This document shows positions 8,139 through 33,336 of a DNA stretch of 64,000 nt, in pieces (positions within the stretch are counted from its first letter, which is position 1; each line of letters begins with the position of its first letter). Below the pieces are notes generated by a model that ran no database searches, had not been told where the DNA came from, and saw only the letters and a list, made by a program, of their open reading frames with translations. The DNA is from an uncultured Gemmatimonadales bacterium (GTDB lineage: Bacteria; Gemmatimonadota; Gemmatimonadetes; Gemmatimonadales; GWC2-71-9), in assembly GCA_963828735.1 (NCBI GenBank), contig CAWHFW010000002.1, positions 800,001 to 864,000 on the forward strand, read 5' to 3'. A program made the translations under genes and the position numbers.

Positions 8139-8164
8139 GGAACCAATCCCGCTCCCACGGCATT
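8139..8164 (+). promoter_or_regulatory. ECF sigma promoter (GGAACC-N16-CATT) for the HbpS-cupin-gluconolactonase operon
   Basis: GGAACC aatcccgctcccacgg CATT, 50 bp before ATG 8214; one of five copies. Confidence 0.78.
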
Positions 8165-8213
8165 AGAGCCCGCGTCACCGGGCACCCATTCTCCACGCCG
8201 AGGAGCGACACCC

Positions 8214-8708
8214 ATGAGACTTTCTCCCTCCATTCTCACCGCCGCGGCGCTCCTGGCCCTGGGCGGTCGAGCCCATGCGCAGACTACCGAGACGAAATCG
8301 ACGCTCACGCTCGAGGGCGCGAAGAGCATCGCGGCCGCCGCATCTGCCGAAGCGAAGAAAGGCAACGAAGGCGCCTCTATCGCCATCGTCGATGACGGCG
8401 GCAACCTGATGTACCTCGAGCGGTTGCAGCCCACCTTTCCGATGGGCGCCACGATCTCCACCGAAAAAGCTCGCACGGCCGCTCTGTTCCAGAAGCCGAC
8501 CAAGATCCTCGAGGACGCCATCGTCGGCGGCCGGACGCCGTTGCTGAACGTCTGGTCCGCGCCGCTCAACGGCGGCGAGCCGATCGTCGTGAACGGACAG
8601 GTCGTCGGCGCCATCGGGGTGAGCGGAGCCTCGAGCGCCGCGCGTGATGCCGTCATCGCCCTGGCCGGCGCAGCCGCGCTCGGTGGCAAGACCAGCGCGT
8701 CCAGGTGA
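8214..8708 (+). CDS. Secreted GlcG/HbpS family heme-binding protein
   Basis: Signal peptide (AHA); IAIVDDGG.L, KARTA, GG.PI...GQVVGAIGVSG. Confidence 0.92.
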   Translation: MRLSPSILTAAALLALGGRAHAQTTETKSTLTLEGAKSIAAAASAEAKKGNEGASIAIVDDGGNLMYLERLQPTFPMGATISTEKARTAALFQKPTKILEDAIVGGRTPLLNVWSAPLNGGEPIVVNGQVVGAIGVSGASSAARDAVIALAGAAALGGKTSASR

Positions 8709-8719
8709 GGAGCCCTCCG

Positions 8720-9199
8720 ATGCGATACCGGAACTGGCTTGCCGCCGCCCTGGCGACCCTGCCCGTCGTGGCTGGCGCGCAAACGACCGCCCAGGTGAGC
8801 GACGCGGCCGTGACCTATCTCCCCGCCGACCAGGTGAAGACCGCGTTCGCGAAGGGCGTGCCGATGGTCGAGGTGGGCGACTACAAGATCCACGCGAGCC
8901 GGCGCGAAGCCCCCGGCATGGCGGAGATCCACACTCGCGATACCGATATCGCGTACATCATCCAGGGGTCGGCGACGCTCGTCACCGGCGGCACCGCCGT
9001 CGGCGTCAAGGCGATCGGCCCGGAGGAGCTGCGTGGCACCGCCATCGAGGGCGGATCGACGCGCCAGCTCGAGGTAGGCGACGTCGTCGTCATCCCGAAC
9101 GGTACCCCGCACTGGTTCAAGAGCGTGCGTGGGCCCTTGCTGTACTACGTCGTGAAGGTGCGCCAGGCCGCCCGCGAGACGGCAACGGGGGCCATGTGA
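8720..9199 (+). CDS. Secreted cupin-domain protein
   Basis: Signal peptide; EIHTRDTD and GDVVVIPNGTPHWF cupin motifs. Confidence 0.88.
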   Translation: MRYRNWLAAALATLPVVAGAQTTAQVSDAAVTYLPADQVKTAFAKGVPMVEVGDYKIHASRREAPGMAEIHTRDTDIAYIIQGSATLVTGGTAVGVKAIGPEELRGTAIEGGSTRQLEVGDVVVIPNGTPHWFKSVRGPLLYYVVKVRQAARETATGAM

Positions 9200-10851
9200 G
9201 CCGCCGTGCGCTCGCGCCGCTCGCGGCCGGCATCATTGCGGCCACGCTGCCGCCCATCGCCGCCGGGCCGGTCCTGGCACAGGCCACGGTCGATCTTCCG
9301 GTCGTCCTTCCCTCGGCGGTCATCGACCTGCGGACAACGGACGGGGCGGCGCTGGCGGGGGCGCGGTGGCGCTACAGCGACGCGAAGGTCGTGGAGGTGG
9401 ATCACCGCGGCGCCGGGGCGGATCTCCGTGCGTCCGGCCCGCCGAACCGCACCAATGACATCACCCCGCACGCCGGCCCGGCGGATTTCGACGATTCCGG
9501 CTGGGAGGTCATCCCGCCCGAGGGCCTCGAGGCGCGCCGCGGGCACGGTCGCCTCGCGTTCAACTGGTACCGAACCAAGGTGACGTTGCCCGCGAAGGTG
9601 GCCGGCTTCGACGTCGCCGGCGCCACGGTGCTCTTCGAGCTGGTCGTGGACGACTACGCGGAGGTCTGGGTTGACGGGCAGCTCCCGCTCGTGCTCGGCC
9701 AGACCGGCGGCCAGCTCGTGAAGGGCTTCAACGCGCCGAACCGCGTCGTCCTCACGCGCGACGCGCGGCCCGGGCAGACGATCCAGCTCGCCGTGTTCGG
9801 GATCAACGGCCCCGTGTCCAATCCCCCAGCCAACTTCATCTGGATCCGCTCGGCGACGCTCGACTTCTACAGCAGGGGTGCAGTCGGCCCCGCGCAGCCC
9901 ACGACTGGGAAGGTCGTGCGGCTCGATCCCCGCGTCGACGGGATCGTGCCCAGGGGTGCGAAGATCGAGAAGGTCGCCGGAGGGTTCCAGTTCATCGAAG
10001 GCCCGGTGTGGCACCCGGACGGCTACCTGCTCTTCAGCGATCCCAACGCGAACACGATCTACCGCTGGACGCCCGATGGCGCGGTCTCGGTCTACCGCTC
10101 CAAGAGCGGCTACACCGGCCCCGACATCGGCCAGTACCACCAGCCCGGCTCCAACGGCCTCACGCTCGACCCGGACGGGCTCCTCACGATCGACGAGCAC
10201 GGCAACCGCCGCGTGACACGGCTCGAGCGAACCGGCAAGATCACGGTCCTCGCCGACCGCTACGACGGCAAGCGGCTCAACAGCCCGAACGACCTCGTGT
10301 ATCGCTCCGATGGGACGCTCTATTTCACCGATCCGCCGTTCGGCCTCCCCAAGGCGTTCGACGACCCGCGGAAGGAGCTCCCGTTCAGCGGCGTGTACAT
10401 GGTGCGAGACGGGCAGGTGAGGCTTCTCACGAAGGAGCTGCGTGGGCCCAATGGCATCGCTCTGTCGCCGGACGAGCGCTACCTGTACGTGGACAACTGG
10501 GACCTGGAGCACAAGGTGCTCATGCGCTACGACGTCGCCGGCGACGGGAGCATCTCGAACGGGCGGGTGTTCCACGATTTCACGGGGCTCGCGGAGCCCG
10601 TCGCGCTCGACGGCATCAAGGTGGACCAGCGCGGCAACGTCTACATCTCGGCGCCGGGCGGGATCTGGATCCTCTCGCCGGAGGGCGAGGCCCTCGGTCG
10701 GCTCGAGCCTCCCGAGCACGACGCGAACTTCGCCTGGGGTGATGCGGACGGACGAGCGTTATACCTGACGGCGAGCACGGGACTCTATCGCATCCGGTTG
10801 AGTGTGCCGGGCGTGAGACCGGGCATGGCGCAGCAGTCAGCGGCAAGGTAA
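9196..10851 (+). CDS. SMP-30/gluconolactonase family protein with N-terminal galactose-binding-like domain
   Basis: GTG overlapping cupin stop; signal peptide; WYR..V.LP / VDDYAEVWVDG jelly-roll; EGPVW, SNGL, NSPND, PNGI and DGIKVD propeller motifs. Confidence 0.92.
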   Translation: MSRRALAPLAAGIIAATLPPIAAGPVLAQATVDLPVVLPSAVIDLRTTDGAALAGARWRYSDAKVVEVDHRGAGADLRASGPPNRTNDITPHAGPADFDDSGWEVIPPEGLEARRGHGRLAFNWYRTKVTLPAKVAGFDVAGATVLFELVVDDYAEVWVDGQLPLVLGQTGGQLVKGFNAPNRVVLTRDARPGQTIQLAVFGINGPVSNPPANFIWIRSATLDFYSRGAVGPAQPTTGKVVRLDPRVDGIVPRGAKIEKVAGGFQFIEGPVWHPDGYLLFSDPNANTIYRWTPDGAVSVYRSKSGYTGPDIGQYHQPGSNGLTLDPDGLLTIDEHGNRRVTRLERTGKITVLADRYDGKRLNSPNDLVYRSDGTLYFTDPPFGLPKAFDDPRKELPFSGVYMVRDGQVRLLTKELRGPNGIALSPDERYLYVDNWDLEHKVLMRYDVAGDGSISNGRVFHDFTGLAEPVALDGIKVDQRGNVYISAPGGIWILSPEGEALGRLEPPEHDANFAWGDADGRALYLTASTGLYRIRLSVPGVRPGMAQQSAAR

Positions 10852-10987: not shown

Positions 10988-12517
10988 TCACCCTCGCCCG
11001 ACGTGCTCCATCTTCCGCTCCGCCTCGAGGCTCGCCTTGTCCCTGCCGACCGTCACCACCGCCAGCACCTGCTTCCCACGGAGATACCTGAGCGTACAGT
11101 CCTTGGCCGACACGTCCCCGTCGACGTCGATTCGATCCCACCGCTCGGCGTGCCCACTGTAATTGATGGCCACCGAGTAATGCTGGCTCCAGAAGAACGG
11201 AACCGCGTCAAAATGATCGGCCGGTCCGAGGATGCTTCGGGCGGCGGCCTGACCCTGGCGCTGCGCCAGCACCCAGTGCTCCACCCGAATCCGTCCGCCG
11301 GTGTGCGGATCCGGCCACCGGGCGATGTCGCCCGCGGCGTAGATGCCCGGTGCGCTGGTCTCCAGCCGTTCGTCCACGAGCACGCCGCGGTCGAGCGCCA
11401 GACCCGCCTCGTCCGCCAGCCCGACGTTGGGCCGCACTCCGATACCCGCCACCAGGAGGTCGGCGGGGAGGGACTGGCCATCATCCAGGACCACCAGGCC
11501 ATCCGCGATCCTGACCGCCCTGCGACCGAGGTGGAAGACCACACCCTGCTCCTCGTGGATCTGCCGGATCATGTCGCCGAGCGCCGGGCCGAGCACCCGT
11601 TCCAGCGGCCGCGCGTCCGGGGCGACGACCCGGACATCCATCTTTCGCGCCCGGAGCGAGGCCGCCACCTCGAGACCGATGAAGCTCGCGCCGAGCACGA
11701 CCGCGCGGCCGCCTTCGCGCGCGGCACCGACGATCCGGCGGCTGTCGGCCAGCGAGCGGAGATAGTGCACCCGAGGCGTGCCGGCCTCGAGGTCGGGCTC
11801 GAGATGCACGGGACTGGCCCCGGTGGCGAGCAGCAGCGCGCCGTAGCTAAGGTCGGTTCCATCGTCGAGGCGCACGCGACGGCCGCGCGGGTCGAGGGAG
11901 GCGACGCGGGGTCCGCGCCGCAGCTGGATCCCCCGCTGCTGGTAGAAGTCGGGTGGATGCAGTGGGATCCATTCTTCGGGCGCGTTCCCCGCCAGGTAGT
12001 CCTTGGACAGGTTGGGCCGATCGTAGGGCGCGTCCCCATCCGGATCGACGATCGTCACGGGCCCCTCGTACCCCTCGCGTCGAAGGGTTTCCGCGGCGCA
12101 CTCACCGGCAGCCCCACCGCCGACGATGACGACCGACTCGGGAGCCTTGGCGCGCCGGCTCGGCCGCGGCGGCGGCTGGCGCTTGGCGCCGACCCTGACC
12201 ATTCCGTCGCTGACGGCGACGTCCCAGCACGACAGATCGTTGAGCGCGGGCGGTCGGAGCGGTTGGCCCGTGCGCAAGCTGAAACAGCCGTGGTGCCAGG
12301 GACACCGGACGGTGTCGCCCACCATCAATCCCTCCGCCAACGGCCCGCCGTAGTGACTGCAGGTGGCTCCGATCGCGAACCACTCGTCGCCCCGGTGGGC
12401 CAGCAGCACGGCTTCCTCTCCCACACGCCCCGCGATCATTCCACCGTCCGCCACGTCCGTCGTCGGAATGCCGGCCTGCAGGTCCGGGCCTTCCGGTGCT
12501 TCCTGTCCCGATGCCAT
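10988..12517 (-). CDS. Rieske [2Fe-2S] + FAD-dependent pyridine nucleotide-disulfide oxidoreductase (AIF3-like)
   Basis: CSHYG...CPWH Rieske ligands; GGGAAG, YDRPNLSK, GASFIGLE, AAGD, VPFFWS; GGAGGG RBS. Confidence 0.94.
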   Translation of the reverse strand: MASGQEAPEGPDLQAGIPTTDVADGGMIAGRVGEEAVLLAHRGDEWFAIGATCSHYGGPLAEGLMVGDTVRCPWHHGCFSLRTGQPLRPPALNDLSCWDVAVSDGMVRVGAKRQPPPRPSRRAKAPESVVIVGGGAAGECAAETLRREGYEGPVTIVDPDGDAPYDRPNLSKDYLAGNAPEEWIPLHPPDFYQQRGIQLRRGPRVASLDPRGRRVRLDDGTDLSYGALLLATGASPVHLEPDLEAGTPRVHYLRSLADSRRIVGAAREGGRAVVLGASFIGLEVAASLRARKMDVRVVAPDARPLERVLGPALGDMIRQIHEEQGVVFHLGRRAVRIADGLVVLDDGQSLPADLLVAGIGVRPNVGLADEAGLALDRGVLVDERLETSAPGIYAAGDIARWPDPHTGGRIRVEHWVLAQRQGQAAARSILGPADHFDAVPFFWSQHYSVAINYSGHAERWDRIDVDGDVSAKDCTLRYLRGKQVLAVVTVGRDKASLEAERKMEHVGRG

Positions 12518-12570: not shown

Positions 12571-12598
12571 GGAACCTTTTCAGACCGGCCGGCATTCC
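12571..12598. promoter_or_regulatory. ECF promoter, readable on both strands
   Basis: + strand GGAACC-N16-CATT (12571-12596); - strand GGAAT-N18-GTT (12598-12573), 56 bp before the Rieske-FAD start. Confidence 0.7.
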
Positions 12599-12640: not shown

Positions 12641-12943
12641 GTGGCAACATCATTTCCCGCAGCCGCCCGGTGGGCGGCGGTTTCCCTCGTGGACGTAGAG
12701 GTCGCCATCCAGACAGACCGGCGGGAGGCTCCACTGGCCGGGGAGCCCACGCTCATCCGGCTCCTTCGCCGGCCCGGGTGGACACCTGCGCAGGAGCCGG
12801 GTGGGACATTCGAGAAACTGCCCCGTCTGGACGATACACCGGACCTGTACCTTCGCGCCCGCTCCGGAAATCTCCGGCATGTCGCTCCGGACGACGAACC
12901 GGACGACGGCATCGTACCGGCGAACAAGGAGGCGGCGACATGA
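12641..12943 (+). pseudogene. Probable collapsed remnant of an ECF sigma factor gene
   Basis: Open frame between an ECF promoter and an anti-sigma gene, with TGA overlapping its ATG; fragments AQE..GTFE, LDDTPDLYL.ARSG and L..VA...DGIV resemble successive parts of ECF sigmas (recalled, not searched). Confidence 0.5.
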
Positions 12944-13218
12944 ACCGGCGTCTGGACCGTACGACGTGCGAGGAGACCTTCCGTCGCCTCGATGATTACC
13001 TCGACCGACAGTTGAGCGCGGAGGACACGCGTCTCATCGAGGAGCACCTCCAGCACTGTGCGGCGTGCAGCCAGGAGTTCGTGTTCGAGGCCGGGGTGAT
13101 CCGGGGGGTGCGACACAAGCTCAGCAGGCTGGACGCCCCGCCCACCCTGCTCGACCGGATCTCCAAGGAGATCGCGCGCGCGGCTCGGGAGGAGGATACG
13201 CCCAAGGAATCCCCCTGA
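12940..13218 (+). CDS. zf-HC2 (ZAS) anti-sigma factor, RsrA/RshA-like
   Basis: C...RRLDDYLDRQL...EEHLQHCAAC; AGGAGG RBS; soluble, 92 aa. Confidence 0.92.
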   Translation: MNRRLDRTTCEETFRRLDDYLDRQLSAEDTRLIEEHLQHCAACSQEFVFEAGVIRGVRHKLSRLDAPPTLLDRISKEIARAAREEDTPKESP

Positions 13219-13245: not shown

Positions 13246-13530
13246 TCAGCGACCCAGCAGGTCGTGGAGCCCGCGCATCACGATGTAGACCAGCGGCGCG
13301 GCCAGCAGCACGCGCGGCATCAGCGCCCGAGCGCGCAGACCGTGAACCAATCGAGCGTGTGTGGCGGCGGTGAGCGTGGTGCCGACCGCGAGGGCCACGT
13401 TGGCGGCCGTCGCGGCGCTCACCCGTGACGCGAGCAGCTGACCCACGAGGAGGCCGGAGAGACTGCCCACGAAGACGGCGGCCAGGAAGCCGCCGAGCTC
13501 GCTCGCGAGAGGATGTCGCGGCGGGGTCAT
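13246..13530 (-). CDS. Small hypothetical membrane protein (3 TM)
   Basis: 94 aa with three hydrophobic segments; ATGA overlap with upstream ORF. Confidence 0.7.
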   Translation of the reverse strand: MTPPRHPLASELGGFLAAVFVGSLSGLLVGQLLASRVSAATAANVALAVGTTLTAATHARLVHGLRARALMPRVLLAAPLVYIVMRGLHDLLGR

Positions 13531-13826
13531 CGATCTTCTCGCCGTGGCCTCACCGGGAGCGTCGAGGTCGACGCCGCCCCGCCACGAAATTCGAAGTGCG
13601 CGTCCACCAGCATCCTCCCGGCGGGCCGGAGATCGTCACCGCGAAGGAGTCGCCCGGCGAGCACGCGGTCGGCCGTGATGGCGGCAGACTCCCACTCTCC
13701 GGCGACGAGCCCCGGATAGAGGTGTCGATGCTCGGGTCGAAGGCGGGCTTCCCGACGATCGGCCGCCCGCCCCTGAAGAGGCAGGGCGGCCGCCATCCGC
13801 CCCACGCTGGTCGTCACGGCCGGCAC
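13527..13826 (-). CDS. Hypothetical protein (REARLRPE...YPGL..GEW...HFEFRGG motif family)
   Basis: Operon-coupled ORF after gdh; globular-looking sequence; start uncertain (GTG 13826 or ATG 13796). Confidence 0.7.
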   Translation of the reverse strand: MPAVTTSVGRMAAALPLQGRAADRREARLRPEHRHLYPGLVAGEWESAAITADRVLAGRLLRGDDLRPAGRMLVDAHFEFRGGAASTSTLPVRPRREDR

Positions 13827-13831
13827 GACGG

Positions 13832-15019
13832 TCAGTCCCCCGCCACTTCGCAGTAGACTTTGATGGCTCCCTTGGCGGAGGTGAGCGTATGGAGCAGGAG
13901 CTGCCAGTTCTCCAGGCCGCGCACCGGATGCGTCAGCAGGCGACGGAGCCACCCCGGATATTCGGCCTCGGCCTGCGCGAGGTCCTTGACGCCGGTCTCG
14001 AAATACTCGCGATTCGCATTGACCGTGCCGACCATCACCTTGTTGCCCAGCACGAACTCCAGATTGATCCGATCGGCGGGGACCCGGATGCAGTTGTCGC
14101 CGCCGGTGACGCTGGACAGCACGAGGACGCCGTTCTTGGCCAGGACCCGCATGCTCGCGAACACGACCACGGACGACCCGGTGGCCTCGAAGATGATGTC
14201 GAACGGCCCGTACCGGACCCCACCCTCCATGATCGTCCTCGCCTCCGTCGACTCGTAACGCGCGCCGATCGCCTCGACCAGATCCGAGTTGAGGTAGGGC
14301 CGGGCGGTCCGCCCGAACACGGTCACCTCGAGGCCACGGAGCCGGAGCGCCAGCGCCGCCAGCAGCCCGATGGTCCCGGCCCCCATCACCGCGGCCTTGC
14401 GCGGATGCCAGACCCGGAGCCGGCGCTGGACCTCGTACGCCTGGGCGATCCCCTTCTCCACGACCGTGGTCGGCTCGAGCAGCACGCCGACCTCCTTCAG
14501 ACCCTTGGGGACCTTGACGATGTACTCGGGATCGTCGACGTAGTACTCGGTGAGGTACCCGTGGCGCAGGTTGATCCCGCGCTCGTAGTACACGTCATCG
14601 GTTGTCATGTCGTAGGTGCCGATCGTATCGTAGATGCTCGACCCCGGCCGACGCACCGTGGCCACCACGTAGTCGCCCGGGGCGAGTTCCGTGACGTTCG
14701 GACCCACGGCTTCTACCCGGCCGAAGCTCTCGTGTCCCGTCACGAGAAAGTCGTAGCCCGGAGGCGCCGCGCCGTACTCCGCCGCGTTGATTTCCTTGTC
14801 CGTACCGTCGACTCCGACCTTCAGCACCTTCACGAGCACGCCGCGCCCGTTCGGCACCTCGTCCAGGGATGGCCTGGCCAGCTGCGCCAGGTGCATCGAG
14901 TTCGGTGTGCCGGGAAAGACGGCGATCGCCTTCATCATCGTCGCGTCCGCCTTCGTTGCGGCCGCCGGCGCGCGGACCGGGGTCGTGAGGGCGGCGCCGC
15001 CTCGGTCACTGCTGGGCAT
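13832..15019 (-). CDS. Zinc-dependent (MDR) glucose 1-dehydrogenase
   Basis: GVDGTD, GHE, VRRP, ERGI...HG, LEP.TVVEK, GAGTIG, VLGNK..VGTVNAN; AAGGAG RBS. Confidence 0.9.
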
Positions 15020-16181
15020 GAGCGACTCCTTCGTGCTCGACGAGTTGGACGGCGTGGCCGTCGGGATCGCGGACCAGGAGCCCGCGCGAGAATCCAAGGG
15101 TGGTATCCGGCAGCGCGATCGCCGACGACGAGAGCAGGCGAAAGCTGCCGCGGCGCACCGCCGCCGCCGCCGCGTCCGCGTCGGGCACCAGCACGGTGGT
15201 CTGCCAGTGCACTAGGTCGTTGGGCCGCTCGTCGGCCGGGTAGGGCCGGCCGTCGCGCGGGGCGTCGTACTCGAGGAACTCGATGCCGGGGCCCGAGGGC
15301 GCCCGGAGGCTGGTAATGTGGAGGCGAGCTCCTTTCACGTTGTTCAAGTGCTCCTGCTCGGTGCCCGCATTCATGCTCTCACCCGCGACGCGGAAGCCGA
15401 GCACGTCGCGATAGAACGCCAGGCTCGCCCGGGTATCGGCGACGACGATCGCGGTGTGATCGATACCGAGGAACAGGCGATTCGTCGCGGCGTGCCACTT
15501 GGGGTCGCCCTTGTCCGGCGGGAACTGGAGGGCCTCGAGCGGATGGCCGTCCGGGTCGCGAAAGTAGAACGCCCGGATGCCGGCGGCGTTCGGAATGGTC
15601 TCGGGCAGCCGCTGCGGACCGGTCGACGCGTAGCGCACCTTGTACCGGCGGAGACGCGCATAGGCGCTGTCCATGTCGCGGACGATGATGGCCACGTGCT
15701 GGAACCACCGGTCGTTGCTCCGACTGTCGAGCGGTGCCGGCCGGCCAGACGAGGCGATGTACTGCGTGAGCTGCAGGGACTCGTCACCGAGGGCGAGCCG
15801 GACGACGCGGAGGCGCACGCCGAAGACGCCGGTCAGCTCCTCGTACGGAGCGCCGGCGACCTCGTCGTCGCTCACCTTGGTGAAGTCGAGGACCCGGGTG
15901 TAGAACGCGACCGAGCTGTCCATGTCCGACACCGTCAGTCCGATCATGGCGACGGCCTGCGCGCGGCCGGCCGGGTCGCCCGACGGCCCCGACGCATTGC
16001 GCGCCGTGACGCCGTGGCCGGCCCACGGTTGAGGCGACTGGGCCGGCAACCTGGAGGCCATGAGGGCCAGGACGATCGTCCACAGGATCGTTGCGAAGCC
16101 CAGCGCCGACGAATGCGTCCGGGCCCGGCCCGGCTCCGCGGAGCGGCCGCCGTAGGGCAGACTCGCGACAAATGCGTTCAT
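15006..16181 (-). CDS. Secreted two-domain VOC/glyoxalase family protein
   Basis: Hydrophobic leader; [41 protein letters not shown]. Confidence 0.88.
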
Positions 16182-17797
16182 GCCATTGCTCCCGCAGTCT
16201 CCCCTGCAACGATCCTCTCCCGCCTGCTCGCGCCCAGCCGCTCGAGGATCCGATCCCCCACGCGGAGCGCATTCGCCATGATCGTGAGCGCCGGGTTCAC
16301 CGCGCCGCTCGAGGGGAAGAAGCTTCCGTCGACTACGTACAGGTTGTCCACCTCGTGCGCCCGGCAGTTCACGTCGAGCGCGGACGTCTCGAGATCGCGA
16401 CCGAACCGGATGGTGCCATTCTGGTGCGCGACCCCGGCGAGAGGGATCCTCTGCCCGACGAAAAGGTTGCGTGCGAACAGTCCCTGGTGGCAGGCGTCCC
16501 CGTGAATGTCGCACCGCGTCTGCTGTTGCATCAGCCGCTCCAGCTTCTTGATGAGGCGCGCGTGGCCTTCCCCGTTATTGGGCGTGTAGGCGAGCACGAT
16601 GCGGCCGTCACGATCGAGGGTTACGCGGTTGTTCGGATCGGGCAGGTCCTCGGACGTCAGCCAGAAATCGAGCGAGTGCTTGCCCATGAGGTCCAGGGTC
16701 CACCCGGGAGCGATGGCGGGCGCGCCGGCCGAGAGGGTCACCCCGTCGAGCTTGCCAACGAAGGAGATGTGACCCATCGGGAACGGCCACTCCGGCGCAC
16801 CAAAGTAGAAGTCGTTGAGGGCGAGCGTCTTCTGGAAAATCGTCGGGTTGGCACAGCGGGAGAGCGCCATGAGCACCGAGTTCAGGTGCCCCATGTAGTG
16901 CCGGCCGACCACGTCCGACCCGTTCGCGAGCCCGCGCGGGTGCCGGTCGCTCGCCGAGCGGAGCAGCAGCGCCGCCGAATTGATGGCGCCGGCGGAGACC
17001 ACCACGATGTCGGCGGAATACTCCTCCCGGCGGCCGTCGCGCTCCACCACGACGCGCGTCACCTCGCGACCGGAGGCACTGGTCTCGAGCCGCGAGACGT
17101 ACGCCCGGGGGAGCAGGGTGACGTTGGGATGGCGGTCGAGCGTGGGATCTACGCACACCACCTGCGCGTCGGACTTGGCCTTGACCAGACAGGGATGGCC
17201 GTCGCACGTCGCACAGCGGATGCACGCGCTCCGGCCGCGATCGGCCTCGTTGAGCATGATGCCGAGTGGCACGTGGAAGGGCTTGCAGCCAAGCCGGGCA
17301 AAATCCTCGCTGAGCTGCCGGATCCGTGGCTCATGACTCACCGGGGGATGCAGGTACGGGGCACTCGTCGGCGGCTCGGTCGGGTCGACGCCCCGCTCGC
17401 CGTGCACCTGGTAGAGATGCTCAGCCTCGGTGTAGTAGGGCTCGAGCTCCTCATAGGTGATCGGCCACGCGGGCGATACACCACCATGATGCCGCAGCTC
17501 GCCGAAGTCTTCGCGCCGGAGCCGGAACAACGCCGCGCCGTAGAACTTCGTGTTGCCACCCACCCAGTAGTTCGTGTGCGGGTGAAGATCCTGCCCCGCT
17601 CTGTCCCGCCAGTGCTCCGCCGTCTGGTAGCGACCTTCGACGTTGACCGCTCGGGTGCTCCAGTTCTCGGGCTCGCGGGGCACGTAGTCGCCACGCTCGA
17701 GAAGGAGGATGCGCTTGCCGGAAGGCGCCAGACGGTGGAAGAGCGTGCCGCCGCCCGCGCCGGAGCCGATGATGATGACGTCGTAATGGATTGGCAT
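16178..17797 (-). CDS. GMC family FAD oxidoreductase with Cys-rich (Fe-S-like) motif
   Basis: GSGAGG, VGGNT, CIRCATCDGHPC, AHQNGT, NLYVVDGS, VNPALT. Confidence 0.94.
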   Translation of the reverse strand: MPIHYDVIIIGSGAGGGTLFHRLAPSGKRILLLERGDYVPREPENWSTRAVNVEGRYQTAEHWRDRAGQDLHPHTNYWVGGNTKFYGAALFRLRREDFGELRHHGGVSPAWPITYEELEPYYTEAEHLYQVHGERGVDPTEPPTSAPYLHPPVSHEPRIRQLSEDFARLGCKPFHVPLGIMLNEADRGRSACIRCATCDGHPCLVKAKSDAQVVCVDPTLDRHPNVTLLPRAYVSRLETSASGREVTRVVVERDGRREEYSADIVVVSAGAINSAALLLRSASDRHPRGLANGSDVVGRHYMGHLNSVLMALSRCANPTIFQKTLALNDFYFGAPEWPFPMGHISFVGKLDGVTLSAGAPAIAPGWTLDLMGKHSLDFWLTSEDLPDPNNRVTLDRDGRIVLAYTPNNGEGHARLIKKLERLMQQQTRCDIHGDACHQGLFARNLFVGQRIPLAGVAHQNGTIRFGRDLETSALDVNCRAHEVDNLYVVDGSFFPSSGAVNPALTIMANALRVGDRILERLGASRRERIVAGETAGAMA

Positions 17798-17899: not shown

Positions 17900-17917
17900 C
17901 CCGCGCTCAGCGCGAGG

Positions 17918-24773: not shown

Positions 24774-24784
24774 CGACCTCCGTC

Positions 24785-25187: not shown

Positions 25188-25339
25188 AGGCTGTCCCTCA
25201 AGCGGTCCTGCCGCGAGCTCCTGCAGGGCCCGGTTCCACGCCCAGACGTCGGTCTCGATCCCAACCCGGATATGCCCGGGCGGTACTGCCTCTCCTGTTC
25301 GTCCGAAGGCCACCAGCTGCCTGGTCCTGGAGATTGCCC

Positions 25340-26158
25340 ATGATCGAGATCCGCGCGAAGGACTCCGACGCCGTTCTCCTGCGCTTGCCCGCCGACACGC
25401 TTGCGGGTGCGACCCTCGCGGGCCTCGCGTTGCCTGGAGCGGACCTGGCGGGCGCCGACTTGCGCGGGAGCGACTTTCGAGGCGCGGACCTCTGCAAGGC
25501 GCGGCTCGTCGGGGCGGACCTTCGCGGGGCGCACCTTGACGGGGCAGACCTCACCTCGGCCGACCTCACGGATGCCGACCTGACCGGCGCTCACCTGAGC
25601 GACGTCACGTTCCTCGCAGCCACGTTCCTGCGTTCGCGGCTGGCGCGAGCCGACGCGCTGCGCGCGACGTTCGAGTTCGCCACGCTGCGTGACGCGGCGT
25701 GCGGCAGCGCCTCCTTCGTGCGGGCCGATTTCAGCCATTCCATCGTCGTGGGCTGCGATTTCTCCGGCGCCGACCTCTCGGCCGCCACCCTCAGTCACTC
25801 CACCTGGCGCCAGTGCAACCTCGCCTATGCCACGCTCGCGATGGCCGTGCTGGACGGGACCTGTCTTGCCGAGACCGACTTGAGCCATGCCGAGCTCTCG
25901 CGCGCCTTCCTGGCAGGCCCCACGCTGGCCGGCGCCGATTTCACCGGGGCCACTCTCGGCCGGACCGTGCTCGCGGCGTGCGCCGACCTCTCGCGTGCCC
26001 GCGGCCTCGAGGCGGTCGTGCACCACGGGCATTCGTGTGTGGATCTGGCGACACTTCGGGCGGGCTTGGACACGCTGCCTGAAAGCTTCCTGCAGGGTGC
26101 GGGGGTGGAGCGCGACGAGCTGGAGGCACTGAGGAGCGCCATGGCTCCGTCGCACTAG
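25340..26158 (+). CDS. Pentapeptide repeat protein
   Basis: Long A(D/N)LxG repeat run; GGAG RBS; C-terminal non-repeat cap. Confidence 0.92.
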
Positions 26159-26337: not shown

Positions 26338-27795
26338 TCAGGTTCGACCGGAAGCGTCGCAGCCGATCGCCCCGCGTGGGGCTCGCGCGAGCGCGATGGT
26401 CCAGCGATTGGCGTTCTCGAACACATGACGCCAGCGCTCATCGAGCCTCGCCGCCGCGGTACACGCGTCCGCGCTCGCCAGCTTCGGCAGCCCCCGATGG
26501 AGCGCAGGCAGCGCGTCAGCGCTCAGCTCTTCCGCGTAGCTGACGTCGAACGGGCGGCCTCGCGCGGCGCGGTCCAGGTTCACGCTCGCGATGACACCGT
26601 CCGGATTGGCCAGATTGAGCCCCGCCAACACCAGCCAGCCCGCCAGCAGAGCGCCCGTGCCGAAACGCTCGCGCCGCCCCCGGAGCACGGTCGCTCCGAA
26701 CCAGCCGAAGACGAGCACCAGCCACCCCATGAAGGCCGTGGTGTAGAACCGGAGCTCGGTGAGACCGAACTCGATCGTGTACAGCCGCATGCGGTAGAGC
26801 GCGGAGGCGAGCATCACGTCGAGGAGGACCAGCATCAGCAGGGCGAGGCGACGGAAGGCGCGTGCCCGGCCGGGATCGCGCTGGTCGAGTGACCAGTCCG
26901 CCAGGAGGAGCAGCGGCAGCGAGAGTGCCGCCACCGTCACCAGCTCGAAGAACCCGCGCCGGGCGTACTCGGCGTAGCTCAGGCCCGTGACCTCGCGCAC
27001 CAGCTCGGCGCCCCCGAACAGATAACGGAATTGGACCGCCACGAACGCGAGGAAGAGCAGGTCCACCGCCGCCAGGACCACTCCGACCTGCGCCAGCCCG
27101 AGCGTGCCGCGCCGCGCCGCGACATCGACGGCAGCGTCCGGACGGCACAGGGCGCGCAGAATGCCGGCAGCGAGCCAGGCCCACAGGAAGATGACGCCGG
27201 TGTGCGACGCGAGCGCTCCCACATCGAAATTGAACGAGCGCACCACCAACCGATCGAACACCGGATCGGCCTGCATGAGCAGGCTTCCGAACACCGCGGC
27301 GACCGGTACCGCGGCCGCGAGGCCGACGGCCGCGCCACCCGCCTGCCGCATCCGGCCCCCGACCGGCAGCGTTCGCCAGTCCACCTCGCTGAACGCGACG
27401 ATCGGCGCGCCGCTCGCGGCGCCGCCGAGCAGCTCGCTCGCGCCGCGCGCGTAGTCGCCCAGGCCCGCCCGCCTGCGACCCACCGCGCGAAGTCTCGGAG
27501 ACGCGAGCGCCCCGACCGTCGCCACGCCGGCCAGATTAACGGCGAAGAGCGCCGGAGAGTCCCGCCATATAAGGGCGATGCCGAGCAGCGCGAGCGGTAA
27601 GCCGAGCGGCGTGAGAGATCCGGGTAATCGGACGGCGCCACTGTGCGCCATCGCCAACAGGATGAGAACGAGGGCTCCGAGGCCCAGTGCGGCGTCGAGC
27701 CGGCCCGGGACCGTTCGCGCGAGGACATCGGCGACCACTCCGAACGCCAGCGCTCCCGCGAGGACTGCGATTCCCTGCCGGGTCCGGTCCGTCAT
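26338..27795 (-). CDS. DUF4153/DUF4173 family polytopic membrane protein
   Basis: LL..ADPVF, QF.YLFGG, YAEYARRGFFEL, RM.LY...FGLT.LR, LSADALP. Confidence 0.9.
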   Translation of the reverse strand: MTDRTRQGIAVLAGALAFGVVADVLARTVPGRLDAALGLGALVLILLAMAHSGAVRLPGSLTPLGLPLALLGIALIWRDSPALFAVNLAGVATVGALASPRLRAVGRRRAGLGDYARGASELLGGAASGAPIVAFSEVDWRTLPVGGRMRQAGGAAVGLAAAVPVAAVFGSLLMQADPVFDRLVVRSFNFDVGALASHTGVIFLWAWLAAGILRALCRPDAAVDVAARRGTLGLAQVGVVLAAVDLLFLAFVAVQFRYLFGGAELVREVTGLSYAEYARRGFFELVTVAALSLPLLLLADWSLDQRDPGRARAFRRLALLMLVLLDVMLASALYRMRLYTIEFGLTELRFYTTAFMGWLVLVFGWFGATVLRGRRERFGTGALLAGWLVLAGLNLANPDGVIASVNLDRAARGRPFDVSYAEELSADALPALHRGLPKLASADACTAAARLDERWRHVFENANRWTIALARAPRGAIGCDASGRT

Positions 27796-27798
27796 GGG

Positions 27799-28509
27799 TC
27801 AGCCGGCCGCCGCGTCGGGCAGGCCACCGAAGCGGCGATCGCGCGCGCTGAAGTCGCGTACCGCTTGGGCTAACGCCTCGGGTCCGAACTCGGGCCACAT
27901 GAGCGGCGTGAAGTGCAGCTCGGCGTAGGCCGCCTCCCACAGGAGGAAATCGCTGAGCCGGCGCTCGCCGCCGGTACGTATGAGCAGGTCCACCTCTGGC
28001 GCGGGCACCCCATGGTCCACGATCGCGAGGAGGCGGCCGAACGATTCGCGCGACGGCACGGTCTCCGGCCGCAGGCACTGGGCCGCGCGGAGGATTGCGT
28101 CCCGCGAGGAATAGTCGAGGGCGATACGGAGGTGCAGTCGGGTTCCCCCGGCGGTCGCGCGCTGCGCCTCCTCGACGGCCTGACGGAGCGCGGGGCTGAG
28201 CCGGTCCCGCCGTCCGATCACCTCGAGCCGAACGCCGTTGGCGACGCAGCGCGGTGTCTCCATCCGCAGGTACTCACGGAAGAGACGCATCAGCCAACCG
28301 ACCTCCGCCTGCGGCCGGCGCCAGTTGTCAGCGGAGAAGGCGTACAGCGTGAGGACGCCGATGCCCGCGTCGGGCGCGGCCTCGACGATGCGCCGCACCA
28401 TCGCGGCTCCCGCCCGGTGCCCCGCCGACCGCGACCGGCCTTGTCGCGTGGCCCACCGGCCGTTGCCGTCCATGATGATGCCGACGTGAATCGCCGTGCT
28501 TTGCTGCAT
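27799..28509 (-). CDS. uppS: Cis-prenyltransferase (UppS-like, divergent paralog)
   Basis: [49 protein letters not shown]. Confidence 0.9.
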
Positions 28510-28516
28510 AAAGTCG
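28496..28516. promoter_or_regulatory. Second copy of the 7-7-7 palindromic operator, overlapping the uppS start codon
   Basis: GTGCTTT-GCTGCAT-AAAGTCG versus GTACTTT-ACAGTAT-AAAGTAC at 29575. Confidence 0.6.
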
Positions 28517-28538
28517 CTCCGCAAAAAAAAAGAGGGGT

Positions 28539-28934
28539 CTAGTGCTCGCGCGTGGCCCGAATCAGCGCTTCCATGTGCTCCAGGTAGCGCTCGAGCGCGC
28601 GGCGGCCCGCGGGGCTCAGCCGGAACTCGGTGCGGGGAACCCGGCCCTCGAACGTCTTGGTGCACACGACGTACCCGGCCTCCTCCAGCTTCCGGGCGTG
28701 CACGCTGAGATTGCCATCGGTCGTGTCGAGCAGGCGCTTGAGCTCGTTGAAGCTCAAAGCCTCGTTGACCGCGAGGGCGCTTACGATCGCGAGGCGCATC
28801 CGCTCGTGGATGAGTCGGTCGAGCTCGAGTGGGTCGGGCGCGGCGCCGCCGCGCTCGCCGCGGAGCGGCGCTGCCGGCGGCGAGGCGCCATGCGCGGGAC
28901 GCCCTTTGGGCGCCAGGTTGGAGTCAGCCACCAT
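28539..28934 (-). CDS. Winged-helix transcriptional regulator (HTH_34, ArsR/MarR-like)
   Basis: [48 protein letters not shown]. Confidence 0.92.
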
Positions 28935-29571
28935 ACCTCCGTGCGATGATCAAGCCGAACACGATGTGGAGCGCGCCGAACCCGGCGGCCATGAACGCAT
29001 TGCCCCAGATTGGCGGACCGAACAGGGCGGCGGCGCCGAGCGCCATGAAACAGAGACCCATGAGCGGGACGACCCGCACCGAAAAGGCGCCACCAGTCAC
29101 GACGCCCGTACCGTACAGCAGGAGCCACGTCCCGGGTAATGCCGACCAGAGCCCTGCGCGCACCAGCACACCGGTGAGCAGCGCTCCTACCAGCAGCGGC
29201 GGCACGTAGCTCAGCACGAACCGCCGCCCGGAATAGGAGAAGACCGTGGTACCTGCCCGCCGCGCCTTCGCCGCCATCGTCCACCCGCCAAGGGTGAACG
29301 CCAGGACCGAGGTCGCGAGCCAGGTCACGAGCCACTCGGTGGGTGTGAGCCTGGTCTCGGCCACTGCCGCGGCGCCGAGCGCCAGCACTCCCATCCCAAC
29401 CCCGCCCCACCCAGGGACGGCAGTGAAGGCGGTGGCCCGCTCCATCGTCTGCCGAATGAAGCTGAGGTTGTCCATGGCCCGGGCGTGGAGGGCCGGGTCT
29501 TCGGTGGGGCGGGTGGGCACGCGTTGGGGAGAGGCCATGGCCTTCACAGTAGGGGCGCGAGTCGCTTGCAT
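28924..29571 (-). CDS. Hypothetical membrane protein (6 TM); start may be 29538
   Basis: AMDNLSFIRQTMERA, WLLLYG, FGALHIVFG..IARRYGG; overlaps regulator start. Confidence 0.82.
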   Translation of the reverse strand: MQATRAPTVKAMASPQRVPTRPTEDPALHARAMDNLSFIRQTMERATAFTAVPGWGGVGMGVLALGAAAVAETRLTPTEWLVTWLATSVLAFTLGGWTMAAKARRAGTTVFSYSGRRFVLSYVPPLLVGALLTGVLVRAGLWSALPGTWLLLYGTGVVTGGAFSVRVVPLMGLCFMALGAAALFGPPIWGNAFMAAGFGALHIVFGLIIARRYGG

Positions 29572-29574
29572 CAA

Positions 29575-29612
29575 GTACTTTACAGTATAAAGTACGCTCT
29601 GGAATCCGTCAA
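29575..29612 (-). promoter_or_regulatory. Sigma70 promoter overlapped by a perfect palindromic operator
   Basis: Minus strand TTGACG-N17-TATACT; GTACTTT-N7-AAAGTAC (29575-29595) spans the -10. Confidence 0.85.
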
Positions 29613-29634
29613 CCTGCCGGCTCCCCTACCCTCT

Positions 29635-29964
29635 TCAACTTCCCTCGACCACCACCGCGGTGCCGTAACAGAGTACCTCGGTCACTCCCTGCATCAGCTC
29701 GGTCGCGTCGTACCGGATGCCGATGATCGCGTTTGCCCCCGCGGCCTCGGCGTGCTCCACCATCATCTCGAACGCTTCCAACCGGGTCTTCTCGCAGAGC
29801 TCGGTGAACAGGGTGATGTTCCCGCCGAACAGCGTCTGCAGCGAGCCGCCGATCGTGCCGAAGATGTTGCGCGAGCGGACCGTGATGCCGCGGACGACGC
29901 CGAGCGTCTGGACGATGTGATAGCCGTCCAGTGTGAAGGCGGTCGTGGTGAGTCCGTGATCCAC
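29635..29964 (-). CDS. YbjQ/UPF0145 family protein
   Basis: [33 protein letters not shown]. Confidence 0.92.
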
Positions 29965-30414
29965 TCAGGCGCTCCGGAGGTCGGATGTGCAGTGCGGGCA
30001 GCGGCTCGCGGCGACCGGAACCGCCATCCGGCAGAAAGGACAGTCCTTCGTGTTCGGTGCCGCGGCCTCTTGCGGCTGCATCCGGTTGGCTGCCCGGACG
30101 ACGAGGAAGATGGCGAAGGCGGTGATCAGGAAGATCAGCACCGCGTTGAGGAAGAGACCGATGTTGATCGTGACGGCGCCGGCGGCTTTGGCGTCGGCCA
30201 GGGTGGCGTACGGTCCCGCGCCCTTGGCCCCCTCCTTCAGAACCAGGAACAGGTTGGAGAAATCGACGTTGCCCAGGACCAGGCCGATCGGGGGCATGAT
30301 GATGTCGTTGACCATCGAGTTGACGATCGTGCCGAACGCCGCACCGATGATGACGCCGACCGCGAGGTCGAGCACGTTGCCGCGCATTGCGAACGCTTTG
30401 AACTCTTTCAGCAT
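29965..30414 (-). CDS. mscL: Large-conductance mechanosensitive channel with C-terminal zinc ribbon
   Basis: [27 protein letters not shown]; tail CPFC...CPHC. Confidence 0.95.
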
Positions 30415-30604
30415 GCATCACCTTGCGTTGAGGAAGGGCTTGGCTCCAGGGGCATGCCACTGATATAAGGTCGGCGCGGTCCGCCGGGAAGTGCGGCGCG
30501 TGTGCCGACGCACGGGAAGCTGGCCTCCTCACGCGAGCGGGGGACACGACGTTGGTCGTGCCCCCCGCGCACACCCAGGATGGCCGCCTGTTCGCCGTGG
30601 CGCC

Positions 30605-31825
30605 CTACCCTGCGACCGCCATCTCGCCGTCGACCACCCACGGCCCATGGCCTCGTGCCTCGATGCAGCGGCGCTCGAGGTCGGTGAGGACGTTCATGAA
30701 CGCCACGAACGCATCGTAGGGCGACTGGTGCGGGTTGAAGTACTTGTGCACGTCGCCGTCCGCGAACCACTTGGTGCACATGTAGTAGCAGTGATCGCTG
30801 GTGGTGAGGCGGCGCCATGCCTCGAGGCGCGACGGATCGCCGAGTGCGCGGATGTCCGGGCCGAGCCGATAGAGGCGCTCGAACGCTGCCCGCTGCATCC
30901 GATTGCCGAGCCAGGCGCTGGTATCGCGATCGAGATCGGCCCATGATGTGGTCGTAGGAAACGACAGGGTCCCCACCGGCGGACGGGCGGCGAGGGTGGA
31001 TGGATGGACGCAGGCGGTGTTCCGTCGCGCGAGCGCGTCGGGGAGCGCCTGGAGGAAGTCGAAGATGCCCGTCTCCGCCCACTGGTGCTCCCCAAACGTC
31101 TCGTAGTCCATGAAGACGTGCACGCTCGACTCGGCCATGCGGGCGATCCAGTCGCACCACTTGTCCGCGGTGAGCGGCCACCCGTCCCAGTCCCGATTCG
31201 AAAACCGAAAGCCAAGGTCGTCGGTGATGCGGTAGTTGCGCGGGAGCAGTCTGAGGGTCGGCGCGGAGGCGGCCGCATACACGTAGTTGGGCGATCGCCA
31301 GCCAAGGGCCCGCTCGGCGCCTTCGACCAGCATCGCCGCGTAGCCGAGTCGCGCCACCATCGGCGCCAGATCGTCGTCGTAGAGCAGCTCCGTATTCCGG
31401 AACACGGTCGGCCGCTGGCCAAAGTGACGGCCGATGGCCGCGCGGTGCTGCTCCACCTGGATCAGGAACTCTGCCGGATCCCGAAGGCCGCTCAGGCTGT
31501 GATGGAAGGTCTCGCCGAGCAGCTCGACGCCCCCGGTCGATACCAGGTCCTGAAAGCTCGCGAGCGCATCAGGGGCGTCGGACTCGAGCTGGTCCAGCAG
31601 GACGCCGCTCAGGCTCATCGCGACCCGAAATCGGCCGTCCGACCGGCGGATGGCCTCGGCCAGCAGCCGGTTGCTGGGCAGGTAGCACTTGTCCGCGACC
31701 CGACGGAGGATGGCGCGGTTGGCATCGTCGTCGAAGTACCCGGCGGCGGTGCCGATGTCGAATACCTTGAATGGGCGCAGCCGGTACGGCTGGTGAACCT
31801 GGAAATAGAAGCAGATGTCAGGCAT
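30605..31825 (-). CDS. GH57 family alpha-amylase-like glycoside hydrolase
   Basis: FQVHQP, ETFHH, FRNTEL, FMDYETFGEH, TSDH..YM. Confidence 0.94.
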   Translation of the reverse strand: MPDICFYFQVHQPYRLRPFKVFDIGTAAGYFDDDANRAILRRVADKCYLPSNRLLAEAIRRSDGRFRVAMSLSGVLLDQLESDAPDALASFQDLVSTGGVELLGETFHHSLSGLRDPAEFLIQVEQHRAAIGRHFGQRPTVFRNTELLYDDDLAPMVARLGYAAMLVEGAERALGWRSPNYVYAAASAPTLRLLPRNYRITDDLGFRFSNRDWDGWPLTADKWCDWIARMAESSVHVFMDYETFGEHQWAETGIFDFLQALPDALARRNTACVHPSTLAARPPVGTLSFPTTTSWADLDRDTSAWLGNRMQRAAFERLYRLGPDIRALGDPSRLEAWRRLTTSDHCYYMCTKWFADGDVHKYFNPHQSPYDAFVAFMNVLTDLERRCIEARGHGPWVVDGEMAVAG

Positions 31826-33236
31826 CGGAGCTCCGTAGCTGTCCAGCGGGTCGAGTGACCGTCGTTCGCACGGGCTGATCGGCGCTGGCGATGCGGACGT
31901 CGGGTGGGCCGCCTTGGTCGGGTCGCGGTGCGGCTGAGGCTATTGGGGCGGAGGCCGGCCGACGGCTCCGCACTGCCCGCCGGGCCGTCACGCTCGGGGA
32001 ACCCTGGGAGGAGGCCTTCAACGTCGCGCTGTAGGTCCGGCCTGTATTACGAGCGGCCTGGTCCAAGCTCAGCCGATCGCTCCGCACCTCCGCGAGCCCC
32101 CCTTCGCTGAGCTCCTTCCACAAGACGGGGTGACCGAGCAGGGCGATCACCTTGTCCGCCATGTCATTCACGTCCCAGAAGTCGACCCGCATGGCATGCC
32201 GAAGCACCTCTGAGACGCCCGCCGTCTTCGGGATGATGCAGGGAGTGCCGTTCCGCAAGCTCTCGAGCGCGACGAGGCCGAGCGGCTCACTGACCGATGG
32301 CATGACGCACACGTCCGCGGCGCGGTAGAGGCGGTCCACGTCGGCACCCTGCACCCCGCCGGTGAAGTGCATACGGTCCGCCAGGCCGAGGTCGACGGCG
32401 CGCTCGATGACGCGCGGAAGCAGGTCTCCCGTCCCGGCGAGGATGAATTCCGCCTCCGCCACATGGTCCGCGACGCGGCGCGCGACTTCGACGAAGTACT
32501 CCGGGCCCTTCTGCCGGGTGACCCGACCTAGGAAGAGTACCGTCGGGCGCCCACGCGCCACCGGGAGGTCCTCGAGGTCCGCGGCCTCATTGGCCACGTC
32601 GACCCCGAAGTGCACCACGTCGACCTTTTCGGCGGGGATGTCGTATCGCTCCACGACCTGGCGCTTGAGCGTCGCGCTGTTGCTGATCACCCGATCCGCC
32701 AGCATCAGACCGGCCGCTTCCCGCCGGTGGATCTCCGGATTGCCCGGGCCGCCACAGCGGTCGTACTCGGTGGCATGGATGTGCGCCACGAGAGGCTTGC
32801 CGGACACGGCGCGCGCGCGGCGCCCCGCTTCGAACGTGATCCAGTCATGGGTGTCGATGAGGTCGTGCGGCTCGTCGCGAGCGATCACCTCCGCGATCGC
32901 GGCGTAGCGCTCGACCTCCTCGAACAGGTCGGCGCCGTACACCGCCCCGTTGCCCGTTCCCCTGCGCGCCTGCTCGGCAAGGACCTCGTACGCCTCCGCG
33001 CCGGCGTATGGGGCAAGCGGGCTGTCGACTCGGATCGGGCGAAGGCCAGGCCGCGCATCCGCCGCGCTCACGAGATGAAGGTTGGGTACGTCGGGTGTCG
33101 CGGAGAGCGCGAACGGCACTACCAGCGTGATCTCGATGCCCTGGTTGAGAAGCCCCTTCACCAGGCCGAGAGTCGCGGTGGCAAGGCCGCCGGCCTGAAA
33201 CGGAGGGAATTCCCAACCGAACATCAATACGCGCAT
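31818..33236 (-). CDS. GT4 glycosyltransferase (glycogen-synthase-like)
   Basis: MFGWEFPP..GGL, HDW.T, H.HATEYDR, GR.T.QKGP, PSVSEP.G..ALE. Confidence 0.92.
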   Translation of the reverse strand: MRVLMFGWEFPPFQAGGLATATLGLVKGLLNQGIEITLVVPFALSATPDVPNLHLVSAADARPGLRPIRVDSPLAPYAGAEAYEVLAEQARRGTGNGAVYGADLFEEVERYAAIAEVIARDEPHDLIDTHDWITFEAGRRARAVSGKPLVAHIHATEYDRCGGPGNPEIHRREAAGLMLADRVISNSATLKRQVVERYDIPAEKVDVVHFGVDVANEAADLEDLPVARGRPTVLFLGRVTRQKGPEYFVEVARRVADHVAEAEFILAGTGDLLPRVIERAVDLGLADRMHFTGGVQGADVDRLYRAADVCVMPSVSEPLGLVALESLRNGTPCIIPKTAGVSEVLRHAMRVDFWDVNDMADKVIALLGHPVLWKELSEGGLAEVRSDRLSLDQAARNTGRTYSATLKASSQGSPSVTARRAVRSRRPASAPIASAAPRPDQGGPPDVRIASADQPVRTTVTRPAGQLRSSDA

Positions 33237-33310
33237 GGGAGTCCTGATCTTCGCTGGCGAAGCGACTCGGCTGTCATGGACGGAACGTCGTGAGCTGCGT
33301 TGGGGAGGGT

Positions 33311-33336
33311 AACGCTACCTCGGCAGGTTCGGTTCC
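33311..33336 (-). promoter_or_regulatory. ECF promoter for GT4-GH57
   Basis: Minus strand GGAACC gaacctgccgaggtag CGTT, 75 bp before ATG 33236. Confidence 0.78.

Follow-up and report, generated by a model that had tools for sequence, protein, structure and literature searches.

Members of the Gemmatimonadota are common in soil. The stretch described here is a window of 64 kb on contig C2 from the genome of an uncultured bacterium of this phylum (order Gemmatimonadales; 4.78 Mb, 7 contigs), which contains five copies of the motif GGAACC-N15-G-CRTT within a region of 25 kb, at 8139(+), 12571(+), 19258(-), 25132(-) and 33336(-), and no further copy. All five positions and orientations reported in the initial annotation were found exactly. 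The five sites likely represent one promoter class of extracytoplasmic function (ECF) sigma factors, with their function being predicted, and they link the operons of a gene island whose cargo is predicted, from the functions of the protein families involved, to serve under osmotic, desiccation and oxidative stress. In related genomes an ECF sigma factor gene, here called sigI, is part of the island. In this genome a remnant of sigI is left, and an intact paralogue, here called sigP, is encoded on contig C5.

Organization of the Island and Its Predicted Promoters

The gene starts used in the following are approximate, being assigned by our own hexamer-based gene caller. Four of the motif copies precede gene starts and the fifth precedes a pair of sigma remnant and anti-sigma gene, as had been proposed. 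Predicted promoter 1 (8139..8164, +; -10 element CATT) ends 49 bp before the gene of an HbpS-like haem protein (8214-8708, +; PF03928), which together with a cupin (8705-9199, +; PF07883) and an SMP-30/gluconolactonase (9196-10851, +; PF08450) forms operon 1 (8214..10851, +); the N-termini of these proteins resemble signal peptides as judged by eye. Predicted promoter 2 (12571..12596, +; CATT) heads the operon of sigI and its anti-sigma gene in relatives, and no difference is listed at this site in the strain contigs covering it (runs X5, X6, X13). Its motif ends 44 bp before the GTG opening the sigI remnant (12641..12943, +), which has 100 codons and no Pfam match. A terminator-like hairpin with a T-run follows directly after promoter 2 (12604-12629); it is not evident in the alignment of the congeners G001 and G108. 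The remnant is followed by ZAS1 (12940..13218, +; PF13490), a soluble zinc-binding anti-sigma (ZAS) protein of the zf-HC2 family with the pattern Cys-x25-His-x3-Cys-x2-Cys, which scores 45.5 bits against TIGR03988 and thereby stays below the cut-off of 62.5.

Predicted promoter 3 (19233..19258, -; CATT) lies within the last codons of an aquaporin (MIP) gene and ends 63 bp before the start, at 19169, of a DM13 gene. This gene opens operon 3 (13246..19169, -), in which Pfam and NCBIfam matches identify the DM13 protein, a spondin-domain protein, a GMC oxidoreductase, a glyoxalase-fold protein and a glucose dehydrogenase besides two small unknown open reading frames (ORFs), and the gene order of which is the same in relatives. 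Predicted promoter 4 (25107..25132, -; CGTT) is placed 58 bp before ZAS2 (24785-25048, -; PF13490), a solo zf-HC2 anti-sigma gene, so that two zf-HC2 genes indeed lie inside the region. Operon 4 (19229..25048, -) continues with a GH63/MGH1-like hydrolase (PF22422), an amylo-alpha-1,6-glucosidase (PF06202) and the MIP aquaporin (PF00230). Finally, predicted promoter 5 (33311..33336, -; CGTT), the weakest of the five sites, precedes by 74 bp operon 5 (30605..33236, -), which encodes a family 4 glycosyltransferase (GT4) that is glycogen-synthase-like and a GH57 protein (PF00534, PF08323, PF03065).

Clustering and Genomic Distribution of the Motif

The number of motif copies in the window is far above that in dinucleotide shuffles of the same sequence (n = 100; mean 0.03 copies, maximum 1), in agreement with the earlier rough estimate of less than 0.1 copies per window. 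In the whole genome nine exact copies were found, five of them inside the 25-kb region, compared to a chance expectation of approximately 3.4 (P ~0.008), and when the two half-sites were set at 17 alternative spacings, 1–10 copies each were obtained. The genome-wide excess by itself is modest, and it is the clustering that carries the signal: not one of 200,000 uniform simulations placed five of nine copies within 25.2 kb. A matrix was derived from 111 sites, all located in other genomes; its core positions are fixed by the motif pattern and its flanks are free. Scanning this genome with it ranked four window sites first to fourth, with the 8139 site being the best match of the genome, and the GT4 site (33336) tenth. 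The motif is not equally frequent in coding DNA, which would have spoken against a promoter: 14 of the 20 matrix matches in the genome are located outside called genes, compared to 17.8% at random. The -10 triplet is ATT in 75% of the 111 training sites and in 3/5 window sites.

Conservation of the Motif in Relatives

Congeners contain the same island genes in shuffled order, and the motif is again found ahead of the operon heads. For orthologue upstream regions, loci from other genomes were counted after de-duplication by upstream sequence (the DM13 count includes the locus described here). The motif was detected upstream of HbpS orthologues in 15/21 cases, all 15 having A at the first base of the RTT triplet, and upstream of DM13 in 23/30, where six more loci have GAAACC as -35 element and one a spacer that is one base longer. 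It also precedes GH63 in 20/30 and solo anti-sigma (ZAS) genes in 12/17 loci; for GT4 orthologues the numbers are 4/9 with the strict and 6/9 with the relaxed pattern. As controls, genes internal to operons were analyzed, and no motif was found upstream of the debranching enzyme (0/27) or the glucose dehydrogenase (0/22), and upstream of the GMC oxidoreductase it was present in 3/33. Beyond the genus, in a set of 80 loci, the motif occurs in 34/48 loci of the sigI/sigP clade (88 sites) versus 2/32 loci of other SigH-like sigma factors, and the reversed pattern gave no match in any of the 80. Genomes with sigI or sigP (n = 26) have 2.2 motif copies per Mb versus 1.25 in 55 others, with control patterns being equal. 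The suggestion that one promoter class ties the operons of this region together is thus upheld by its conservation in orthologues and its enrichment outside of coding DNA.

Other genes belong to the island or accompany it without a motif of their own. A Rieske protein and FAD/NAD reductase unit (10988..12517, -), divergent from promoter 2, is an island member of this kind (motif upstream of the Rieske reductase in 0/10 orthologues), and a pentapeptide-repeat protein gene (25334..26158, +; PF00805) travels with the island (0/46). In most relatives throughout the phylum the latter gene and ZAS1 converge; in the window it is oriented away from ZAS2, with a sigma-70-like -10 box near 25187. A group encoding a DUF4153 protein, undecaprenyl-PP synthase (uppS), a pair of winged-helix and membrane protein, YbjQ and MscL (26338..30414, -) is often linked to the island and has no own site (MscL 0/7, uppS 0/7). 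Outside the region, at 38499-56318 of the window, a run of long minus-strand ORFs of ~800–1000 codons lies behind an ABC ATPase-like gene, and the first ORF of this run resembles an ABC permease on visual inspection.

Further motif copies were noted elsewhere in the genome described here (G000). One (C2:144144-144696, L269) lies 69 bp before a 152-aa gene without Pfam match, and similar sites in G003, G010 and G012 precede apparently the same gene. Exact motifs are also found at C4:103733 before a gene whose 127-aa product begins with a signal-peptide-like sequence and at C5:2101589 before an alpha/beta-hydrolase-like gene that is seemingly frameshifted. A third solo zf-HC2 gene (C5:1240500-1240724, L090), with the near-motif GGAACC-N16-TGTT just upstream, is a possible further anti-sigma gene of the regulon.

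Decay of the Island Sigma Factor sigI

In relatives, intact sigI sits between promoter 2 and ZAS1, preceded by a motif copy of its own. In the window described here no intact ECF sigma gene was found, and therefore a local sigma factor cannot drive the island in this genome and was rejected as a candidate. The assignment of the ORF ahead of ZAS1 as a sigma remnant, already made in the initial annotation, proved to be real: a linker peptide is retained in which 13/15 residues are identical to two congeners, region 2 has become unrecognizable, region 4 was lost by an in-frame deletion, and the stop codon overlaps the ZAS1 start. Among strains, represented by contigs from runs of other studies, the remnant shows 16 non-synonymous and 8 synonymous differences, and as far as sequence comparison goes it is under relaxed selection. 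An assembly error was rejected as contigs from three studies cover the region gaplessly in overlapping pieces, one of which crosses the region-4 deletion and none of which spans the whole remnant, and run X1 may be the source sample. The remnant being a selected mini-protein was rejected too, since the strain differences are near neutral and strike the linker peptide.

Across the genus, ZAS1 is retained with sigI being eroded or deleted in six genomes, four of which have sigP, whereas sigP accompanies intact sigI in 2/23 genomes. Two congeners, G001 (L045 3673-4230) and G108 (L111 1752-2303), contain a full-length, in-frame sigI with eroded region 2 that is still coupled to ZAS1 and placed behind the motif. 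In these half-sigma genes, the ratio of non-synonymous to synonymous substitution rates (dN/dS), obtained by a crude counting method, is ~0.34 in linker and region 4 and 0.51 in region 2, compared to 0.07–0.09 in intact sigI. Linker and region 4 are thus better kept than region 2 and remain subject to purifying selection, and both genes have lost Asn88 and Ser182. It is conceivable, but doubtful, that such an eroded sigI acts as a decoy, sequestering the zinc anti-sigma while the sigma-54-driven paralogue transcribes, with the window remnant being the end state; either this holds or the half-sigma genes have been caught mid-decay. A decoy of this kind would resemble PhyR, except that it is proposed here to be built from a dead sigma factor. 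In L065-L068 (G063, G053, G046, G018), ZAS1 and the pentapeptide gene are tandemly duplicated beside sigI.

The Intact Paralogue sigP and Its Predicted Sigma-54 Wiring

The paralogue sigP is intact at C5:1982210-1981614 and 59% identical to sigI, and its strain differences comprise 4 non-synonymous and 13 synonymous changes. In a phylogenetic tree, for which 40/63 rows were used after long branches and near-duplicates had been dropped, sigI and sigP form one Gemmatimonadota-centered clade apart from actinobacterial SigH and from the core sigma factor of the genus (99/100), and the eroded sigI of G001 and G108 are nested within sigI. The residues of the recognition helix and of region 2.4 are shared by sigI and sigP.

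In this genome sigP has no anti-sigma gene at position +1. It closes a unit that starts with an activator of 1802 aa, followed by an 89-aa STAS protein. The activator is composed of kinase-like, AAA_16, GAF, sigma-54 activator and Fis domains with the GAFTGA motif intact. In the kinase-like domain (L086 10638-16046) the catalytic-loop motifs are not recognizable by eye, and it is possibly a pseudokinase. Upstream of the STAS gene, a -24/-12 box, GGCA-N6-TGC, is aligned in 8/8 loci although the flanks have diverged, and it is found by pattern in 4/5 further full-length loci. Repeated TCCCA words precede this box and may be activator sites, and rpoN is present in the genome. Island genes are direct neighbors of the sigP unit in seven congeners (G076, G080, G050, G010, G095, G107, G105). 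In addition, the remnant region and the sigP unit are both represented among near-identical contigs of runs X5, X6 and X13, and a plasmid search with sigP gave no match at E 1e-35.

The STAS protein is more likely the partner of the activator than that of sigP, because the module of activator, box and STAS gene recurs with other ECF sigma factors or with none (L372-L384, L388). At 13 other loci the STAS gene follows a sigma-54 activator in ten and precedes an ECF sigma gene in only seven. A role as dedicated anti-anti-sigma factor of sigP was rejected, as the STAS protein goes with the activator and has no Ser at the phosphorylation site, which we take to be at the position usual for STAS proteins.

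The presence of sigI and sigP was tallied in 103 congeners, with intact sigI being assigned by identity band. One of these, G094, is flagged as unpublished, and it underlies no individual conclusion. The gene sigP was found in 16/103 genomes (four partial or frameshifted), intact sigI in 23/103, and both in two. DM13, used as marker of the island, is present in 35/103 genomes, namely in 33 of the 37 genomes that have at least one of the two sigma genes and in two of the 66 that have neither.

A Proposed Model for Regulation of the Island in trans

We consider it probable that a sigma factor of the sigI/sigP clade serves the island and that in this genome, where sigI has decayed, sigP reads the five promoters in trans under the control of a sigma-54 cascade. 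A signal would activate the sigma-54 activator, which would then drive transcription of STAS-sigP, enabling sigP to read the five island promoters. ZAS1 and ZAS2, being products of two of the induced operons, would subsequently bind sigP and thereby end the response. In this genome, control thus appears to have passed from a self-amplifying switch with an anti-sigma factor to a cascade started by sigma-54. Assigning a promoter to the sigma gene closest to it does not work in this case. One set of promoters and genes would be subject to two different upstream circuits, and individual genomes represent different stages in the loss of one of the two. A promoter, candidate sigma factors, anti-sigma factors and targets can be defined for a stress island that roughly one in three genomes of a large genus contains.

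Several points weigh against this interpretation. Promoter function, start sites and sigma factor assignment are all predictions, and the inducing signal is deduced from gene content alone. In sigP, 13 of the 17 strain differences stem from one contig, and the co-occurrence counts overstate independence because the genomes are kin. Two genomes of 83% completeness each, G001 and G098, have a decayed or missing sigI, and no sigP was detected in either; in G108 and G045 STAS-sigP occurs without an activator gene directly upstream. Furthermore, the motif is present 41 bp before a pair of cytochrome b and molybdopterin oxidoreductase genes, which we take to be msrQP-like, at C5:2235315 of G000 (L089). 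It is found before this pair in 9/16 genomes with sigI or sigP (one more, truncated upstream, was left out) and also in 8/30 genomes lacking sigI, sigP and the island, six with CGTT and two with CATT (G001 and G003 were left out, since both hold parts of the island). Because island-free genomes keep these sites, another and more widespread sigma factor reads, or has read, this promoter class. It is probably the core sigma factor sigC, and the two CGTT sites of the window, at least, may be among its targets.

Sigma factor sigC (C5:1194073-1194645) is SigH-like, occurs genus-wide and has its own zinc anti-sigma. That sigC reads some or all of the five promoters, with sigP being secondary or additive, is unlikely, though a number of observations point this way: the SigH contacts to the -35 element (Ser, Arg) and the Ile-Asn pair reading the G of GTT are conserved in 19/19 sigC orthologues, two window sites are CGTT, and among the motifs preceding msrQP-like genes in island-free genomes two even have CATT. 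Due to these two genomes, a rule by which CATT is read by sigI/sigP only was rejected. However, identity-band matches to sigC are present in the majority of the 103 genomes (91 with some match), whereas the island is present in 35 and tracks sigI and sigP, and the motif is sparser in genomes lacking both. Moreover, none of the 19 sigC orthologues has the motif within 400 bp upstream, and the HbpS sites consistently carry A where GTT has G.

Another explanation, which is compatible with the sigP mechanism, is a thiol-disulfide stress regulon as described for SigR-RsrA, in which oxidation of the anti-sigma frees the sigma factor. The zinc-finger pattern Cys-x25-His-x3-Cys-x2-Cys is present in 79/79 anti-sigma orthologues, and redox targets are found in the HbpS-like, DM13 and GMC proteins, in an FMN reductase in relatives and in the msrQP-like pair elsewhere. 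Redox-sensitive ZAS proteins are characterized by an acidic-Cys-Cys-Leu-charged signature around HX3CX2C (PMC3177212), but this signature of RsrA was found in 1/79 anti-sigma orthologues and in neither ZAS1 nor ZAS2. While trxB and clpC belong to the core regulon of SigR/SigH (PMC7776599), two trxB, two trxA and three clp genes or the heads of their operons have no motif within 300 bp here, and much of the island cargo consists of glucan, glucoside and water-channel genes. We therefore judge this possibility as rather improbable. Of the earlier proposal that glucoside enzymes, redox proteins and regulators form one stress regulon, the shared promoter class stands; the SigR/SigH thiol-stress type is not supported, with trx and clp lacking the site.

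An orphaned island, in which sigI is dead and the five promoters have become unread relics, is very unlikely here. It would be in line with sigI being a remnant, with sigP residing on another contig without adjacent anti-sigma gene, and with the terminator-like hairpin behind promoter 2. In contrast, the remnant has diverged far, yet four of the five sites have remained the best matches in the genome, the genes of the island have kept their full length, and the remnant region and the sigP unit occur together in the near-identical contigs of three runs. Chance matches in GC-rich DNA can practically be dismissed given the clustering, the placement at operon heads, the conservation despite diverged spacers and the clean negative controls, even if a wrong spacing, N23, gave as many as 10 copies in the genome compared to the nine of the motif itself.

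Comparison With Known Systems

The best NCBIfam match of sigI and sigP is the SigH family TIGR02947, but with 139–150 bits they remain below the cut-off of 251.55, and the best solved structure for the sigI/sigP profile is that of SigH, 5ZX2 (E 7e-43). SigH reads GGAAYA and GTT separated by a 17-bp spacer, with Ser182 and Arg186 contacting the Gs of the -35 element and Ile91 and Asn92 reading the G of GTT (PMC6411747). The geometry is common to the island motif, having a -35 element GGAAY and 17 bp to the RTT triplet. Likewise, Ser182, Arg186, Trp81, Ile85 and Asn88 are conserved in sigI and sigP, with Met181 being replaced by Arg. However, Ile91-Asn92 is Tyr/Phe-Ser, the Ser being invariant at the Asn92 position (23/23), to which the frequent ATT at -10 fits, and the Asn position in region 2 was described to set -10 specificity (PMC7776599). 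A soluble zinc-finger anti-sigma gene at +1 and a self-promoter are features of SigR-RsrA of Streptomyces and SigH-RshA of Mycobacterium and Corynebacterium (group ECF12) that are shared by sigI. In contrast to their global trx/clp regulon, here a local island is concerned, with a second solo anti-sigma and a sister sigma factor under predicted sigma-54 control, and sigI and sigP form a separate clade. Of the label SigR/SigH-like given in the initial annotation, the -35 box, the spacing and the zinc anti-sigma factors hold; the trx/clp targets, the redox signature and the -10 GTT (ATT at three of five sites) do not. Because the -10 GTT reading, the trxB/clpC core and the redox-ZAS signature were not found, the island is not filed as a SigR/SigH regulon. 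No Gemmatimonadota are mentioned in the ECF12 description of the PMC7826278 supplement, although its subgroup tables may name the sigI/sigP clade, and the supplements of PMC7776599 contain no string "Gemmat". A literature search pairing Gemmatimonadota or ECF12 with sigma-factor terms found no regulon for the phylum among the records returned.

EcfG regulons comprise general-stress cargo to which that of the island can be likened. The system of EcfG, NepR and PhyR (ECF15) in Alphaproteobacteria uses a similar promoter, GGAAC-N16-CGTT with CATT being tolerated (PMC7083833), but the island motif is one base longer, GGAAC-N17-CRTT, at all five sites. Moreover, the anti-sigma of EcfG is NepR, whereas those found at the island are zf-HC2 proteins, with NepR and PhyR not having been searched for.

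A precedent for an ECF sigma factor expressed from a sigma-54 promoter is the cascade from HrpR/HrpS and sigma-54 to HrpL in Pseudomonas syringae (ECF32) (PMC5263251; PMC8999054). With HrpL, sigP has in common the lack of an adjacent anti-sigma gene, a predicted sigma-54 promoter and a clustered regulon; the -24/-12 box upstream of the sigP operon, an activator with GAFTGA and rpoN were all found. The records obtained in a literature search on STAS, sigma-54 and ECF included no paper on the system described here. The sigP cascade differs from that of HrpL by a single activator of 1802 aa, a STAS gene predicted to be co-transcribed, stress targets and anti-sigma factors among the predicted targets. 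The system is of a known kind, consisting of an ECF sigma factor and zinc anti-sigma proteins, and what is new is the predicted use of two interchangeable sister sigma factors, one self-promoted and the other sigma-54-driven, the first of which has been lost here.

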